DNA from: a virus
Taxonomy: Duplodnaviria > Caudoviricetes
DNA: 64,000 bases
IMG/VR virus record: IMGVR_UViG_3300013936_000014
Reading direction: 5' to 3' (one strand)
The position numbers and the translations under genes are program-made. Position 1 is the first letter of the stretch; every line of letters begins with the position of its first letter. Below, piece after piece: positions 52,032 to 60,876 of the stretch. The notes beneath the pieces are model-generated. The model searched no databases. It saw nothing but the letters and a program-made list of their open reading frames with translations, and was not told where the DNA came from.

Positions 52032-55000
52032 GTGCCAGTTGTGCAGAATCTATATCAGATCTTCAAAATTCCGGCGTCCGTCTTGGTCGCCAAAAACTGC
52101 ATTTGGGACAATTATTCAAGAGCCCAAGGCTACAAAGACGGGAACATCGTCTCCATCGGCGACAACATCGTGTTCCAGCAGCTCCGCTATATCCACGGCG
52201 ACATGCGCGAGCATCATGAGATCTTCAATTACATCCAGCGTCTTCGCAATTCCATGAGGCGCTACAAAAAAGAAGGGAAGAAAGAAGAGGCGAAGATACT
52301 GGGATACAGGATAAACCAGGTCATGTTCGTGGAAGACATCGTGAACGTCTTCGTGGACGGCAAGAAATCCGATTTCCACAAATTCCGCACCAAGGGGTTC
52401 GAATTCAATGGGCACAGATACGTCTATCTCTGCTCGGGCGCCGGCCAGATCCGCCGCAACACCGCCACCTTCGTGCGCGAGGAATACCACGACAGGCTCG
52501 TCAAAACCATCAACTGCGGGCTCGACGAGAAGACCTCCGAGTTCGTCCTGGCGAAATACAGCGCCTACTTCGCGCTCGCTTTCTCCTCGATACTCTGGGT
52601 CCGCACCCCCCGCTGCTGCGTCATCAGGGATTTCAAAAGAAACCTTCCCAAACAACCCGTCGACTTCATCTGCAAGGATGCCGCCGGCAAATCGATCATC
52701 GAGAAGCGCGAGATGGACGTCGAGCTCAACTGCTTCGACGGGCAGGGGCTCATAGACCCCGAGTTCGCGCAGCTCTGGTCCGAGGACATGGACCTCAACT
52801 ACACGCCATGCTCGTTTGTCGCCCGCTCCTGCTTCGTCAAGGGGAACCTCGCGACGTTCGACTTCAAAGCCTATGCCCGCGAGCACGGGATCAAAACCGT
52901 CAGGGACCGCTGGGGCAAGGAATACGACGTCGAGGACATCGACGTCATCCTCTCGGAGTCCCAGTTCAAGACCGCCAAGTATTACTCCTCTTGGGAGGAA
53001 TACCTCGGCTACGCGAACGCGGGCAGCATCCACTGGGGCGTCGCGAGATACAACAGGGAGACGGACGACGAATGGGTGCTGGCAAACTACCAGTACATCC
53101 AGTCGCTCACCCTCTCGAAAGACGACATCAAGGGGCTCATCGCCCCCACGATCGACTGGATAAGGAAGATCTGCTCCGGGGATGAGCTCTACACCCTGCT
53201 TTACTGCTTCGGCCCGAAATCCGGCTCAAGCGACTATCGGCAGATGCTTGGGACGGCGCAGACGACCATGATGAAGGCCATCGTGAAAAACGTCGACTTC
53301 CTCAAGGACTCATACGTTCAAGGCAAAATATACAAGAACATCGCCGAGACGATAAACAAGGCGAAGATCGGCAAGATATGGGTGCATGGCAATTACCAAT
53401 TCATGGTGTCCGATCCGCTCGCCCAATGCCAATGGGCGCTCGGGCTCGACCCGGTGGGCGGGCTCAAGGCGAACGAGATATACTCAAAGTTCTGGAGCGA
53501 CCGATTGCGGGAAGACCCCGCACGGGATACGGGTTGCCTCGTTGACGCGTGCAGATCGCCGTTGATCGATCAGCATGAGCACAACCCGATGAGCGTCATC
53601 ATGAACAACGAAGAAGCTGACAAATGGTACAGGTTCCTGCCGAGCGGAATAATCTACAACTGCTACGACACGAGCTGCGCCAGGCACAGCGATTCGGACT
53701 TAACATCTAGGTCTTCCATATGGCGACATATGGTCAAGTCTTGGTGAACACGCAAAGTGGTGTGGGAGGGGAATCCCTCCTGCTAACATCAAAAACCGTA
53801 AAATAGGTATTGAAATGGAACGCAACAAAACAATCGGCAATAAAAAGAAACAAAAGAGTCGATGGCTATTTGATAAGAAAAATACCTAAAGGCAATGATG
53901 TGCCAAGCCTCCGCAAGGAGGAAGGTGCAACGACTAGGGAAACCGCCGGCAAAGCCGGAGAAGGGAGTACCGTAGGGGCGTCTGAGATGACGTCTCGAAG
54001 TGCCAAGCAACTCGGAAACGAGTTGAAGAAATAGTCTAAGCCCCTAATAAATATCGGGAAACCGAGGGTATCAACTGTCGATGGTGACATAGTGATGACT
54101 ACGGACAACCCGTACTTCATCAAAGGCTCCCACAAGGACCACAACATAATACTTTACGAAAAAGGCCTCGCGACCCCCGCGAAGATGACCACGTCCAACA
54201 TAACGGCGGCTGTTCTCAGGGGGTTCGGGACAGCTGTCGGGAGTTTCTCAAATTGCGCCACGATCATGTATGCGATGGCTGCGATTTTCGACAAGCCGGG
54301 CCAAGAGGACCAGGAAAACACAATTTACAACCGAATAAAGCTTCTAAGAGAGATAGTCGGCCAAGAGATCGACAAAATAAAAGGCTGCAAACCTCCTCAT
54401 CTCCCTTCTGACTGGAAGAAATACGAGCGCACGCTCCCAGACGATGAAGAGGAAGAAAGGCAGCGCAAATACAAACACAATGCTTTGGTGATATCGAAGA
54501 AACCCTATTTCTTCCGTTATCTCTACCCAGAGCTAAATCGTCGCTACAAGCAATTCGAGGCGTCCTACAACCAAGTCAGCCGCGACATGTTCGGGATCAA
54601 ATTCAAGAAGCTTCTCGCCAAGCGGGACAAAACGCCAGAGGAGGTCGCGCTGGTCCGCAAATACCAGAAATACAACCCCCTCATCACCTCAAACTGCACG
54701 ATGAACGTCCTCTGCAGGATGGTGGAGTCGGTCGACTTCGACATCCGCTTCGCGAAGGACGACTCGGACACGAGGAGGCAAGCCGTCTCCATGCTTCCAA
54801 CATACGAGGGGTATTACGGCGCCTCCTTCTCGCAGGAGAAGTTCAATTACGTCAAGTCGCTCTACCGTCGCTATTGCTCCCGCCGCCAAATAAAACAATT
54901 GGAATCCATCATGGATAACGTGCCGACCAATCCTTATTCCGACGATTTCGCGGAGATCAGGCACAACATGCTTGACGCATTCCTTGACGAATTGCGCAAA

Positions 55001-55405
55001 GATCTTGAGTCAAGCAATATCAACGATGAGGAATTCCTCTTCTATTGCTCCCGCCTTGCCCCAACCTATAACAATTTCAGCTGGGGATTCGCATGGGACG
55101 TCCTGGGGGATTCGATCTTGGAGGCAATCCCGCAAGGCAGAACCCTGTACCCGGTCCGCGACCCCGACGGCGTCGAGTATCTTGGGGGCCGCTACGTCCT
55201 GGAGGACATCTCCGACAAAGGGGAGCTCGCCATACAGTCCCTCCTCGATTCCGTCTTCGGGGACCCGGAGGGCACGCTCACCGAGGAGGAGATAGCCCAG
55301 ATGGCGCGAGAGGAAAATCTTGACATCAAGGGGAAAAAATCGGATAATGACGCAGAAAGGGGAACGGAGAAGAAGGAAGGGAAAGACGATGACGAAGATG
55401 AGTGA
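52032..55405 (+). CDS. YonO-like single-subunit (RdRP-like, double-psi-barrel) RNA polymerase; exons 52032-53700 and 54078-55405, 998 aa spliced
   Basis: SGAGQIR, KYSAYFAL, FDGQG, FVKG, NYQYIQ, CRSP and EIDK motifs. Splicing restores SDSDFDGD. Confidence 0.9.
53701..54077 (+). ncRNA. ORF-less group I intron in the RNA polymerase gene (377 nt)
   Basis: P1 GACU/GGUC with a U-G pair at the splice site, P7 elements AACGACUA and AAAUAGUC, omega-G at 54077, frame restored. Confidence 0.92.
55320..55348 (+). promoter_or_regulatory. Putative sigmaA promoter inside the RNAP 3' end
   Basis: TTGACA-17-GATAAT. Confidence 0.5.
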
Positions 55406-57326: not shown

Positions 57327-57663
57327 GGACATCGAGGACGCCCCCGCCTATCAGGTCATCATGCAGGACGAGTACGACAACCTCTACCTCCTCGGGCTCT
57401 ACGCGAGCCTGGAGGACGCCAGGAAGGACGTCAACGAATGGCTCGCCGCGTACGACGAGGACGGCGTCAGATACCTGGAGGAGGGGGAGCTTTCCGAATA
57501 CGCCTCCACCTTCGGCGGCTGCTTCGACCGCGAGGTCGAATGGAAGGGCGAGGACGGCGGCCCGGGATGCGTGGCGGTCAGGGGATTCGCCCTCAGCGCC
57601 AAGTCGCTCAAAGAAGACGCGGAGAGGATCCTCCGCGCCGCCGACAAGGAGGAAACCAAATGA
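57316..57663 (+). CDS. Hypothetical acidic protein
   Basis: SD GAAAGGAG before MEIKDI. Confidence 0.6.
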   Translation: MEIKDIEDAPAYQVIMQDEYDNLYLLGLYASLEDARKDVNEWLAAYDEDGVRYLEEGELSEYASTFGGCFDREVEWKGEDGGPGCVAVRGFALSAKSLKEDAERILRAADKEETK

Positions 57664-58076
57664 GATTCATCGAAAGGCTGAAGGGGCTCTTCAAGAAGAG
57701 AGAGACCGAGAGATCCACATTCGCCATCACGTTCAGGCACTCCGCCAAGAGCATCGAGTTCGAGGGGACCTGGGAGGAGGTCAAGGGCCTCTTCGGGAAG
57801 TTCGCCGGAGGCAAGGGGCTGAAGATGGGCAACTTCTTCGTCCCGTGGGACGAGGTCGCCTTCATCTATCAGGAAGACAAAGAGGAGAAGAAGGACGAGG
57901 CGAAGAAGGGGCCGAAGCCGGGGGACGAGATCCCCGCGACGCCCGAGGCGAAGGACCTCGGGGCGGAGACCATGGAAGTCCTCGGGGAGAAGGAAAGCCC
58001 GAAGGACGCGAGGATCGACGAGGTCAAGGCGGCGGTCGAGAAGGAGACCGAGGTCAAGGCCGAGGAAATCAAATAA
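57660..58076 (+). CDS. Hypothetical protein
   Basis: SD AAGGAGG; ATGA coupling with the upstream gene. Confidence 0.6.
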   Translation: MRFIERLKGLFKKRETERSTFAITFRHSAKSIEFEGTWEEVKGLFGKFAGGKGLKMGNFFVPWDEVAFIYQEDKEEKKDEAKKGPKPGDEIPATPEAKDLGAETMEVLGEKESPKDARIDEVKAAVEKETEVKAEEIK

Positions 58077-58099
58077 AGGAGGGAAACCTCCTTTTTTTT
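58077..58099 (+). terminator. Intrinsic terminator
   Basis: AGGAGG-GAAA-CCTCCT-TTTTTTT. Confidence 0.85.
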
Positions 58100-58353
58100 C
58101 ATGCCCCCGGAAAACGCCCCGGGGGCTTTTCGGGCGGGCCGAACCGAAATCAGGGGCCGCGGGCCGCCGGAGGCCGCGCGCGAGGCGGGGGGCGGATGGG
58201 GCAGGGGCGACGGCAACGGCTGCGGCGACGACTCGGGGGAGCAGCGGCGGCTGCGGCTGCGGCGGCAACTCGGGGGGCGGGGGAGACCAGTGAAAGGGAA
58301 ATAAGAAAGAAATTATTTCTTTTAAAATGTAAATTAGGGTTTTCCTGGTTTAC

Positions 58354-58420
58354 CGTCGACTAGGCGACGTTAAACAGCCGTCAGGCCTAGTGCGTCCTTC
58401 CTTTTAAGGGAAGGGGTCGG
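58354..58420 (+). ncRNA. Pistol self-cleaving ribozyme
   Basis: P1 CGUCG/CGACG; loop ACUAGG pairs with CCUAGU (pseudoknot); UUAAA linker; P2 CCG/CGG; conserved GCG; P3 UCCUUCCUU/AGGGAAGGG; G|U site at 58416/58417. Confidence 0.88.
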
Positions 58421-58449
58421 ATCGTATATCCGAGAAAGGAGATACTCTC

Positions 58450-58665
58450 ATGAAGTATCGTTTCATTTCGTTCCGCACTTACGGAACAGGCGTCGTTCAA
58501 TACGACACAAAGGCATTCATGTCTGAAGACATGGGTGCCTTGATCGAGGCCGTCTGCCAGGAGGCCCGAATCCTCTTGGCGAACGGCCACGACCGCATCA
58601 CGGTCCACGAGACCTGCGATGCGGAGGACGCGAAAAGATGGAATATTTCCATCTGCCGCGTCTAA
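58450..58665 (+). CDS. 71-aa hypothetical protein between two ribozymes
   Basis: SD GAAAGGAG; the stop codon overlaps twister-sister P1. Confidence 0.7.
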   Translation: MKYRFISFRTYGTGVVQYDTKAFMSEDMGALIEAVCQEARILLANGHDRITVHETCDAEDAKRWNISICRV

Positions 58666-58742
58666 GCCGCAAGGCCCCTCTCTCAAAAGAGAGAGGATCG
58701 GTGCAAGCCCGATGCCCCGAAAGGGGTGGCGCTCATGGCCTA
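58663..58742 (+). ncRNA. Twister-sister self-cleaving ribozyme (four-way junction type)
   Basis: GCC-GCAAG-GCC, P3 CCUCUCUC/GAGAGAGG, P4 AUCGG-UGCAAGC-CCGAU, P5 GCCCC-GAAA-GGGGU, then GGC-GCUC|AU-GGC. Predicted cut at 58734/58735. Confidence 0.9.
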
Positions 58743-59611
58743 TGACCATCGAGGTTGCTCTCGTTAAAAAGCTATGGCGCTTTCAGGCGCCAGCGTCGTG
58801 CGAATCTTGACGCACGATGGCTGGGCAAGACGCTTGAAGGCAAATGCCAGCGGTGGCAAACTCACCATCGCCCAGACGGGGGTCATCCCCGAACGGTGCA
58901 AAGCAAATAACCTCGCTTTGCGTAGTAAAAAAGAGGTAGACGCCCCTGCTTCCGCGGATCATCCGCAGGCGGTTGGGAAACGCACAAAGGAAAGCCAGGA
59001 CTCAGAGCCTGGCGGCCCGATAAGGGAAAAGATGGAGCGACTGCAATCCAGGCAGGAAATGGCTTGGACTAACGCGCAACAGCGGCGCGGCGGGAAAACG
59101 ATACCACTGATTTGATGTGGCTGGGTGAGACGCCTCTCTTCTATGTCCTTCGACCGACGATCGAGGGAATGCGGATGGAGGGATGGCGGAAGTACCTCTG
59201 CCTCCTCATGCACGTTTCATGAGGGGGTTGGCACAGAGGGAAAACAGTCGCACCTCAAGGTGGGAGCTCGGTTGCGAAGCAACCAGGTGCACGGCTCGAA
59301 TGGGGGAGATTCCCCCGGGCCCGGGAACAAAAATGACATGATTCTGCGGTGTCTTGGGTAGGTTTGCGTCGAAAACCTATCTCCGCGACCCTCAATCGTG
59401 TCTCTAGTCAACTGGAGCATCCTCCCTCACGATGGAGGGTAACGTCTGCTTCAACGTCGTCGTGAAGAGGCAGTGAGGCGGCATCACGCCAAGACCAGGA
59501 AAATGATGGCAGATATCGGACGCGAGGGCGCTAAGGCCACGACAACGTTCGCGTTCCGGACAAAACATAGTGGCACCGCCAGGGGCTGTCTTCGGACAGC
59601 TCCTTTTTCTT
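58735..59611 (+). ncRNA. Candidate large structured ncRNA (877 nt) of unassigned class
   Basis: No SD-led ORF. Near-continuous hairpins and pseudoknots, bounded by two ribozyme cut sites and a terminator. Confidence 0.7.
59581..59611 (+). terminator. Intrinsic terminator whose U tract doubles as twister P1
   Basis: AGGGGCTGTC-TTCG-GACAGCTCCT-TTTTCTT. Confidence 0.8.
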
Positions 59612-59661
59612 AATGCGGCAAGCTGGTCCCAAGCCCAGCGGAAGACGCAGAGGGAGAAAGG
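59604..59661 (+). ncRNA. Twister self-cleaving ribozyme (type P1)
   Basis: P1 UUUUUCU/AGAAAGG; U|AA at 59611/59612; P2 UGCG/CGCA; P4 GCUGG-UCCCAAGC-CCAGC; T1 CCC/GGG; T2 GC/GC; conserved GAGGG. Confidence 0.92.
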
Positions 59662-59669
59662 AGACTGAT

Positions 59670-60125
59670 ATGTCTCAAAACAGAAAAGCGGAAGCTCGCC
59701 TCATGTGCGACTATCCGATCTTCGGGACCGTCTCAGACGTGTCCCGAATGAGCACAGGCGTCGTCTACGTCCGCCCGTGCTACTTCAAAGCAGGCGTGGA
59801 CAAGGAGGTCGCGATCTTCCTTCGCGACGCGAAGAAGGAGCGCTGGGCGACCAAAGAGAATCTGAAGGTCGGCACCAAGCTGACCTTCATGATCAGCATC
59901 GACCCATTCAAGGGGCCGATGGCGACGAGCCTCAGAACGGTGAATGCCGCGCCGAAGGACGCGTATTCCGAGCCTTACCGCCCGGACTGCATCCCGGATG
60001 CGAAAGGCTTCCGCCGCATCATCGAGGCGGCGAGAAGACGGGACATGAGGGCTTGCCGCGAAAAGCTGGCGGCCTCATCCGACCCCGTCGACAGGCTCTT
60101 GGCGGCCATCCTGCCACGAGACTGA
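59670..60125 (+). CDS. Hypothetical protein (possible OB-fold)
   Basis: SD GAAAGGAG, overlapping twister P1', before MSQNRK. Confidence 0.65.
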   Translation: MSQNRKAEARLMCDYPIFGTVSDVSRMSTGVVYVRPCYFKAGVDKEVAIFLRDAKKERWATKENLKVGTKLTFMISIDPFKGPMATSLRTVNAAPKDAYSEPYRPDCIPDAKGFRRIIEAARRRDMRACREKLAASSDPVDRLLAAILPRD

Positions 60126-60222
60126 GACGAAAAACAACCTGGCGCCCGCCTCCGAGGCGCATTCTAAATATCGGGGCTTTGGCGGTTCGAAACCGCAACG
60201 ACGGTTTGATTGAAAGGAGAAC

Positions 60223-60876
60223 ATGAGTATGTCACAGAACCAAATCAAAAAAGTCAAGATCACCGATCTGGAAATCGGAACGGGAGTCGTCTACAAGGAC
60301 AATGAGGGCAAATTCTTCCGTCTTTCTTGGGTGGAGGACAGCACCTCTCCCAGAGAGAGGGGGATAAGCGGAAGGCAATTGACCTTCTACACCTGGATCG
60401 AAGGGTATCGAAGCCCCGACGCCTGCAACAAGACAATGAAGGAATTCTATGGTTCCTTCGGCGCCAAGAACACCGAAGAGCTCCTGGAGAACATGGACAA
60501 AAAAGGCTATTTCGTGAAGCCCGTCTATGCGATGATCCATTCGGGGATCTACTACTCCTTGAAAGACTTCCGCGATCCATATGACAGCGGATTGGCCGGA
60601 TTCATCTTCGTGCCAAAGAAATGGATTGTGCACGAGTCCGAAGCCTCTTTCGAAGGGGTCGCCGAAATGGAGGTGAAAGAGTACAGCGCCTGGGCCAATG
60701 GCGAGGTGTGGGCCGTTGAACGCCTGGACAAAGAAGGAAATGTCATCGATGGCTCCCACATTGTCTTCGGGGAGGGAGAGCTCGAAGACATAGACGACGC
60801 CCTCCGAGAAGCCATGATAGCCCCTCAATGGGAATACGAGGTGGCGAAGGTGAAGACCTTCACCGTCTTGGAATAG
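60223..60876 (+). CDS. Conserved-looking hypothetical phage protein
   Basis: SD GAAAGGAG; HSG...DSG..GFI...Y..W.NGEV pattern. Confidence 0.65.
   Translation: MSMSQNQIKKVKITDLEIGTGVVYKDNEGKFFRLSWVEDSTSPRERGISGRQLTFYTWIEGYRSPDACNKTMKEFYGSFGAKNTEELLENMDKKGYFVKPVYAMIHSGIYYSLKDFRDPYDSGLAGFIFVPKKWIVHESEASFEGVAEMEVKEYSAWANGEVWAVERLDKEGNVIDGSHIVFGEGELEDIDDALREAMIAPQWEYEVAKVKTFTVLE

Follow-up and report, generated by a model that had tools for sequence, protein, structure and literature searches.

What is a self-cleaving ribozyme doing between a terminator-like hairpin and the start of a phage gene, when one strand of its outer helix is the tail of the hairpin and the other overlaps the ribosome-binding site of the gene? 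This question is raised by a locus in IMG/VR record IMGVR_UViG_3300013936_000014 (Duplodnaviria; Caudoviricetes), which was analysed as a stretch of 64,000 nucleotides (nt), hereafter termed the window, and in which a hairpin with a UUCG loop, a twister ribozyme and the Shine–Dalgarno sequence (SD) of a gene starting at 59670 follow one another on the + strand. The answer that seems most probable to us, while leaving considerable room for others, is that the locus is a constitutive intercistronic RNA-processing module around a type-P1 twister, which would cut a long transcript into separately stable pieces, and that it is no regulated switch. The element is not a new kind of RNA; as judged by its alignment, it is a P0-bearing, P3-less type-P1 twister in the usual intercistronic context of phage twisters. 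What is locally new is, firstly, a terminator-grade U tract that doubles as the 5′ strand of helix P1 and, secondly, the exchange of the ribozyme as a cassette, at the cleavage junction, among close relatives. An original prediction for this locus had located the hairpin, the twister and the SD, and every one of its coordinates is correct (Table 1); it had also read the three as a translation switch, and it is on this point that we depart from it.

Anatomy and Conservation of the Twister

The Rfam model of the type-P1 twister (RF03160) matches positions 59607–59658 with a score of 43.3 bits (E 1.2e-7; cmscan of 2.5 kb). The UAA, GC, GGUCCCAAGCCC and GAGGG motifs are all matched in the alignment, and the sole departure from the consensus is a weakly matched junction between P4 and P2. 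The conservation of the pairs was followed in five distinct sequences (the window and its relatives L049, L050, L070 and L071), a number of modest statistical weight: all 20 twister pairs are kept, in 100% of the cells of the alignment, as against 42–58% paired in slid controls. Double-sided changes from G-C to A-U are found in both P2 and P4, two of the seven P1 pairs alternate between U-G and C-G, and the core columns (UAA at the cleavage site, GC after P2, the L4 loop GUCCCAAGCC and GAGGG) are invariant, except for one A to C change in the loop of L049 and L070. Such a pattern of substitutions, compensatory changes included, points to a core that is intact and under purifying selection. The interlocking that had originally been described, in which the U tract of the hairpin is the 5′ strand of P1 and the 3′ strand overlaps the SD, holds up; four of the six SD bases lie in P1, which keeps its seven base pairs (bp) in all five sequences.

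The hairpin lies directly 5′ of P1, which is the position of the optional twister element P0/L0; this element is present in about 10% of all candidate twisters, and its role has been called unclear (PMC11662667).

Table 1. Features of the locus and of its counterpart in twister-less relatives (positions in the window unless a relative is named; aa, amino acids)
Feature	Position	Strand	Remarks
GC-rich hairpin with UUCG loop	59581–59604	+	Terminator-like; position of twister element P0; would be the 3′-terminal hairpin of the upstream RNA
U tract UUUUUCUU	59604–59611	+	Supplies the P1 5′ strand (59604–59610); the scissile bond follows U59611
P1	59604–59610 / 59655–59661	+	UUUUUCU / AGAAAGG; 7 bp, two of them G-U
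Predicted self-cleavage site U59611/A59612	59611–59612	+	As placed by the UAA motif when aligned to RF03160
Twister catalytic core	59612–59654	+	AA, P2, pseudoknot T1, P4 with loop GUCCCAAGCC, junction, P2 3′ strand, GAGGG (T2); no P3 or P5
P2	59614–59617 / 59646–59649	+	Twister alignment
Pseudoknots	59618–59619 / 59633–59634 and 59628–59630 / 59652–59654	+	Twister alignment
P4	59622–59625 / 59636–59639	+	Twister alignment
P1 3′ strand AGAAAGG	59655–59661	+	Seven pairs kept in five of five sequences
Shine–Dalgarno sequence AAGGAG	59658–59663	+	First four bases within P1; GAAAGGAG invariant in all relatives
Small hairpin GAGAC/GUCUC around the start codon	59661–59676	+	Partly occupies the SD even after cleavage
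Conserved phage gene (151 aa)	59670–60125	+	60 homologues; SD AAGGAG
Replacement long hairpin	L051:2886–2965, L055:2908–2986, L062:2626–2702, L067:2879–2958		Predicted pairs and compensatory changes

Related Phages Keep the Flanks and Exchange the Core

Twenty-three contigs encoding homologues of the 59670 protein were compared, and they fall into three groups, namely those with the twister, those with another cassette and those with neither. The twister is carried by L069, which is identical to the window, and by the four further distinct relatives named above, in which the whole hairpin–twister–SD layout is preserved with different hairpin sequences. The hairpins of this group have four unrelated stems (−17 to −28 kcal/mol), each followed by a U-rich tail that ends in ...UUUCUU^AA; in relatives, with or without the twister, tails are only moderately U-rich (3–5 U in 8). 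In L070, the unit is placed after an open reading frame (ORF) of 101 aa and not after an ORF-free region.

The second group (L051–54 with L065, L055–58, L062–64 and L067–68) is without the twister and retains a homologous hairpin, a pyrimidine-rich tail and the SD leader (A)GAAAGGAGAC; indeed, the stems of L071, which has the twister, and of L065, which does not, are nearly identical. Sequences with and without the twister part right after ...CUUCUUA, the position of twister cleavage, and rejoin at the SD leader. The twister core is, therefore, an exchangeable cassette between independent flanks. Moreover, the homology of hairpin, tail and SD leader extends to relatives that have no twister, which makes the hairpin a part of the upstream RNA and more than an accessory of the ribozyme. 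In the third group (L059–61 and L066), an ORF lies upstream, and there is neither hairpin nor cassette.

In the second group, the place of the core is taken by a long hairpin, of which the tail forms the 5′ strand, and in which 5 of the 16 predicted pairs show double-sided changes among four variants (7 of 22 when the upstream hairpin is counted). A small GAAGG-GAAA-CCUUC hairpin often comes after it. A search of Rfam with the replacing cassette gave no matching family. A second class of ribozyme was considered for it and set aside: the helices alone are conserved, not the loops or junctions, and the third small hairpin is absent from L067. Our conjecture is that the replacement hairpin is a site for host RNase III that stands in for cleavage by the ribozyme. 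At the RNase III sites of T7-type phages, a polycistronic transcript is severed intercistronically, and the upstream message is left with a 3′ hairpin that stabilises it; it is at this same kind of junction that the twister-less relatives bear their long conserved hairpin. The T7-type sites differ from the locus itself in that a host protein enzyme, not the RNA, does the cutting, and in the chemistry of the resulting ends.

Twisters in Other Phages

Is this context particular to the window and its relatives? A scan of IMG/VR with an exact pattern (GGTCCCAAGCCC, 3–25 nt, GAGGGA), which includes the A that opens the 3′ strand of P1, yielded 48 loci, from which a filter for the P1-type layout followed by clustering gave 24 non-redundant phage twister clusters unrelated to the window. 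A hairpin of −9.5 kcal/mol or stronger that ends no more than 12 nt from the cleavage site is present in 83% of these clusters, whereas random sites drawn from their contigs have one in 34% of cases (71% compared with 19% at a threshold of −12 kcal/mol; Mann–Whitney p = 3e-6). A start codon led by an SD lies within 30 nt of the first nucleotide of the P1 3′ strand in 67% of the clusters and at 12% of random sites.

A stricter filter left 20 clusters, in which SD positions were read by eye. A start codon occurs within about 45 nt in 19 of them, and in 15 an upstream ORF of at least 60 aa ends within 54 nt, a descriptive figure with a weak control, since 49% of random sites have one as well. In 7–8 of the 20 (L001, L004, L023, L025, L041, L042 and L044), the SD is contained in the P1 3′ strand or in the GAGGG core, and in two thirds of these unrelated twisters it falls outside P1. 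Hairpin, twister, SD and start codon, in that order, are thus the usual context of phage twisters, and an SD within P1 is a common variant of it; the overlap, whose conservation in related phages was a check attached to the original prediction, is kept both in the four distinct relatives of the window and in this fraction of unrelated clusters. By contrast, at least 5 U in the 8 nt past the hairpin are found in just 1 of the 20 (L044). A U tract of terminator grade is particular to the window's lineage and, as the hairpins of phage twisters are almost never followed by such a tract, termination is not their general role.

A parallel pattern scan of genome contigs gave at least 120 matches, of which 4 passed the strict filter for twister layout; this set was kept out of the statistics. 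Most of its other matches are likely to be chance hits of an 18-base pattern in 596 Gb, by our own estimate.

Is the Hairpin a Terminator?

The hairpin of the window runs from A59581 to U59604, with ten pairs (six of them G-C), a loop of four and a computed energy of −17 to −20 kcal/mol; its arms are GGGGCUGUC-UUCG-GACAGCUCC with a closing A-U pair, and the tail UUUUUCUU has 7 U in 8. A terminator scan classes this as terminator-like, the features of an intrinsic (Rho-independent) terminator being defined as a GC-rich stem of at least 5 bp, a loop of 3–8 nt and at least 5 U in the 8 nt past the stem. It is the top terminator-like site on the + strand between 51 and 64 kb, where there is a single other strong site on this strand, at 58075. 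The name of terminator originally given to the hairpin is only half secure: the textbook features are there, but the hairpin occupies the known P0 position, and in other phage twisters such hairpins come almost without U tracts. The U-richness of the tract itself follows from its complementarity to the A-rich SD leader AGAAAGG.

The second strong site is a hairpin at 58075–58094, AAAGGAGG-GAAA-CCUCCUUU followed by U7, at the very end of ORF 57660–58076; its GGAGG-GAAA-CCUCC core is similar to the small hairpin in the cassette of L055.

One explanation for the locus would be that an efficient intrinsic terminator ends the upstream RNA and that the twister, if not a decaying passenger, has only the rare read-through transcript to act on, the overlap with the SD being without function. 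The quality of the stem, loop and U tract would agree with this, as would the persistence of the hairpin and its pyrimidine-rich tail in the twister-less relatives. We nonetheless consider it quite improbable. A decaying passenger would hardly be expected to have an intact core with signs of purifying selection and compensatory changes; the tails of the relatives are only moderately U-rich, and P0 hairpins in phages at large are without U tracts. Moreover, a promoter scan found no sigma-70-like promoter on the + strand between 57181 and 62248. Efficient termination would consequently silence at least four conserved genes, which have to be reached by transcripts that pass the hairpin; any termination is, therefore, partial, or else the transcribing enzyme ignores the hairpin.

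As to this enzyme, the 571-aa product of 52032–53747 matches Pfam family PF05183 (RdRP, two-barrel polymerase; E 9.4e-9) and also phrog_8308, and the next ORF (54092–55405) matches the C-terminal part of phrog_8308. From these matches, the two may be a split RNA polymerase of the YonO/crAss-like phage type. A literature search on termination by YonO-type polymerases gave nothing useful.

Is the Shine–Dalgarno Sequence Gated?

The other question is whether the overlap between SD and P1 makes translation depend on the ribozyme. In the original prediction, P1 holds the SD of the 59670 gene in read-through transcripts, and self-cleavage is what releases it. Carried further, this reading would make translation dependent on, and maybe timed or regulated by, the twister, with terminator and ribozyme as a deliberate pair producing two chemistries at the 3′ end. 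Some masking can be expected: with four of its six bases in P1, the SD has a probability of being unpaired of 0.21 in the precursor, which rises to 0.50 in the 3′ product, as estimated thermodynamically without pseudoknots or kinetics. Estimates of the same kind, however, put P1 in trans, which is AU/GU-rich, at only −2.8 to −5.7 kcal/mol, compared with −8.7 kcal/mol for the pairing of SD with anti-SD. According to the folding model, the occupancy that remains after cleavage is held by the GAGAC/GUCUC hairpin at the AUG, a pairing that is also possible in L049, L050, L055, L067, L070 and L071.

In support of gating, the 7-bp P1 is kept in all five sequences, and the SD lies within the P1 3′ strand or the core in 7–8 of the 20 unrelated clusters. 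The Hartig laboratory (Felletti et al. 2016) showed that when an SD is masked in a twister helix, an E. coli reporter responds 5-fold in the P1 format and about 100-fold in the P3 format to an active rather than a dead ribozyme (PMC5052635). Furthermore, the P0 element lowers cleavage in vitro (PMC11662667), which could leave a masked, uncleaved pool.

Set against this is, in the first place, the lack of any ligand-sensing domain or alternative structure among the elements found at the locus. The catalytic core is complete before the 3′ strand of P1 is transcribed, and twister catalysis is reported not to require P1, so cleavage may precede any masking. The SD leader is identical in relatives that have no twister, where it is equally conserved, and most phage twisters have their SD outside P1. 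A regulated switch is unsupported, and we regard cleavage-gated translation as an unlikely explanation.

An intermediate possibility is that a leaky terminator and the twister share the U tract as two routes to one hairpin-capped upstream RNA and that only self-cleaved RNAs expose the SD, which would combine a two-route device with the licensing of translation, while the relatives use an interchangeable non-ribozyme hairpin, possibly an RNase III site. Taken as a whole, with its licensing step, this proposal strikes us as doubtful.

A Probable Constitutive Processing Module

Twisters are fast, constitutive cleavers that leave a 2′,3′-cyclic phosphate and a 5′-OH. How, then, might the module that we favour work? 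What it would do in terms of cleavage, termination, RNA stability and translation is inferred as follows. A long + strand transcript would traverse an ORF-free RNA of about 0.9 kb and continue into the 59670 gene, the hairpin providing the 3′-end structure of the upstream RNA. Some polymerases may halt at the U tract, which would make the site a leaky intrinsic terminator. In RNA from those that read through, the twister would fold, its P1 formed by pairing of the U tract with the SD leader, and would cut between U59611 and A59612. By either route, the upstream RNA would be capped by the same protective hairpin with about 8 nt beyond it, bearing a 3′-OH after termination and a 2′,3′-cyclic phosphate after cleavage. 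The original idea of nearly coincident 3′ ends with different chemistry fits these predicted positions, since termination would be expected about 7–9 nt past the stem and cleavage at 59611/12.

The downstream messenger RNA (mRNA) would then begin with a 5′-OH buried in the compact fold of the ribozyme; the 5′ end of the 3′ fragment of twisters has been described as buried in this way. With a P1 worth no more than −2.8 to −5.7 kcal/mol in trans, rapid loss of the 5′ fragment would be expected, and the SD would be freed once this weakly held fragment has departed. Masking of the SD would, on these terms, be a real but secondary and short-lived by-product of a compact design.

Several points weigh against this account. 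The twister score of 43.3 bits is below the curated gathering cut-off of RF03160 (67.2 bits), and the relatives score 38–45 bits; the shortfall comes from the absence of the optional P3, which accounts for 21 model positions, and the threshold is a matter of curated scoring that imposes no structural requirement. P0 hairpins reduce mean cleavage in vitro from 0.85 to 0.40 (PMC11662667), and cleavage at 59611/12 may, therefore, be incomplete. Competition for the U tract between P1 and the lower stem of P0 occurs in L049 and L050 and is a possible reason for the effect of P0 in vitro. In these two relatives (L049:2885–2943 and L050:2885–2940), an A/G-rich arm (GAAGAA or GAAGAG) pairs with the U-rich tail and so lengthens the P0 stem. 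An RNA polymerase of the PF05183-like two-barrel type, such as the one in the window, might respond differently to hairpin–U sites. Finally, in Firmicutes, a 5′-OH end can attract RNase J1, as happens with the product of the glmS ribozyme, so that the effect of cleavage on the downstream mRNA could be to destabilise it rather than to protect it.

The Upstream RNA

Between a twister-sister ribozyme and the hairpin, positions 58846–59480 (and 59528–59577) show 71–78% nucleotide identity over about 600 nt with eight related contigs. In most of these eight, gene callers report no ORF in the region corresponding to 58846–59480; L059 has one that partly overlaps it. This conservation suggests a large non-coding RNA whose 3′ end would be the hairpin at 59581–59604. 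Further upstream, a pistol ribozyme (58354–58421, 67.1 bits), which lies about 260 nt 3′ of the hairpin at 58075–58094, and the twister-sister (58662–58745, 56.7 bits) bracket a 71-aa ORF on the same strand. The twister-sister is found in every related locus that reaches that far, and among the relatives the pistol occurs only in L049 and L050, both of which carry the twister.

Might the twister serve mainly to give an upstream RNA of about 877 nt a 2′,3′-cyclic phosphate end which, with the 5′-OH left by the twister-sister, would allow an RtcB-type ligation or circularisation, the downstream effects being incidental? The two ribozymes do flank a conserved ORF-free region, and it is established chemistry that both classes leave ends of this kind. 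However, the relatives that keep the large RNA and its 3′ hairpin have a plain long hairpin in place of the twister, which would give no cyclic phosphate by itself, and in L070 the hairpin–twister–SD unit follows a protein-coding gene; nor did any sign of RtcB or of a circular junction come up, although no search was aimed at either. A role in ligation consequently seems very improbable indeed.

The Downstream Gene

The protein encoded from 59670 has its 60 homologues at 62–99% identity, most of them 146–151 aa long and starting at the same Met, and the SD lies 6 nt upstream of the ATG, a sequence and spacing shared by many + strand genes of the window. By this conservation, the ORF (59670–60125) can be taken as a real gene. 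An AUG at 59613–59615 lies within the twister core (UAAUGCGG), in frame with the gene, and yields a spurious ORF of 170 aa; as a start for the gene, the ATG at 59613 was rejected, since nearly all homologues begin at the Met of 59670. Searches of Pfam and PHROG found no family for the product, blastn of 57600–60300 against GenBank phages gave no match, and a protein-guided search of IMG/VR with the 151-aa protein found no relative.

Relation to Known Systems and Significance

With the type-P1 twisters that have P0/L0 (RF03160; Roth et al. 2014, as cited in PMC11662667), the locus shares the core, the P1-P2-P4 helices, the two pseudoknots and a U^AA cleavage site near the 5′ end, together with a hairpin immediately 5′ of P1. 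It differs from them in having neither P3 nor P5 and in scoring below the Rfam cut-off, and also in that its hairpin is followed by a true U tract and is conserved even where there is no ribozyme. As regards location, a review that cites Felletti et al. 2017 places bacterial twisters and hammerheads near phage genes and relates the proposal that they split polycistronic mRNAs into pieces that differ in stability or translatability (PMC6765202).

Two engineered systems come close to the arrangement. In the pRAP cassettes, the order is stem-loop, twister, ribosome-binding site and ORF; the upstream cistron comes to end in the stem-loop, the message that follows has the twister at its start and, when the stem-loop is left out, only the last cistron is expressed (PMC9872166). 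These cassettes differ from the locus in being artificial and transcribed by T7 RNA polymerase, in having the ribosome-binding site outside P1 and in using a stem-loop that is no terminator. The SD-masking twister platforms of the Hartig laboratory resemble the locus in that a ribozyme helix sequesters the SD, and in the platforms cleavage raises translation (PMC5052635); they differ in being artificial and controlled by ligands through grafted aptamers, whereas no sensing domain was found here. Self-cleaving ribozymes in the 5′ untranslated regions of RNA mycoviruses, which are used for the initiation of translation, offer another parallel, since they too lie a few nt upstream of a start codon and set the 5′ end of a translated RNA; these, however, are mostly hammerheads, in eukaryotic RNA viruses with cap-independent initiation (PMC13725137).

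The biological role of most self-cleaving ribozymes of bacteria and phages is still unproven (PMC6765202, PMC11662667). The locus is a compact and testable case, in which a terminator-like hairpin lends its tail, and the following gene its ribosome-binding site, to the outer helix of a ribozyme, and it provides natural counterparts to the engineered stem-loop–twister–ribosome-binding site and SD-in-helix designs. Since close relatives have the same flanks around a non-ribozyme cassette, comparing them could separate the capping of 3′ ends, the definition of 5′ ends and the release of the SD. If the two-route reading were true, these relatives would be natural ‘isogenic’ controls for the question of what self-cleaving ribozymes are for in bacteria and their phages.

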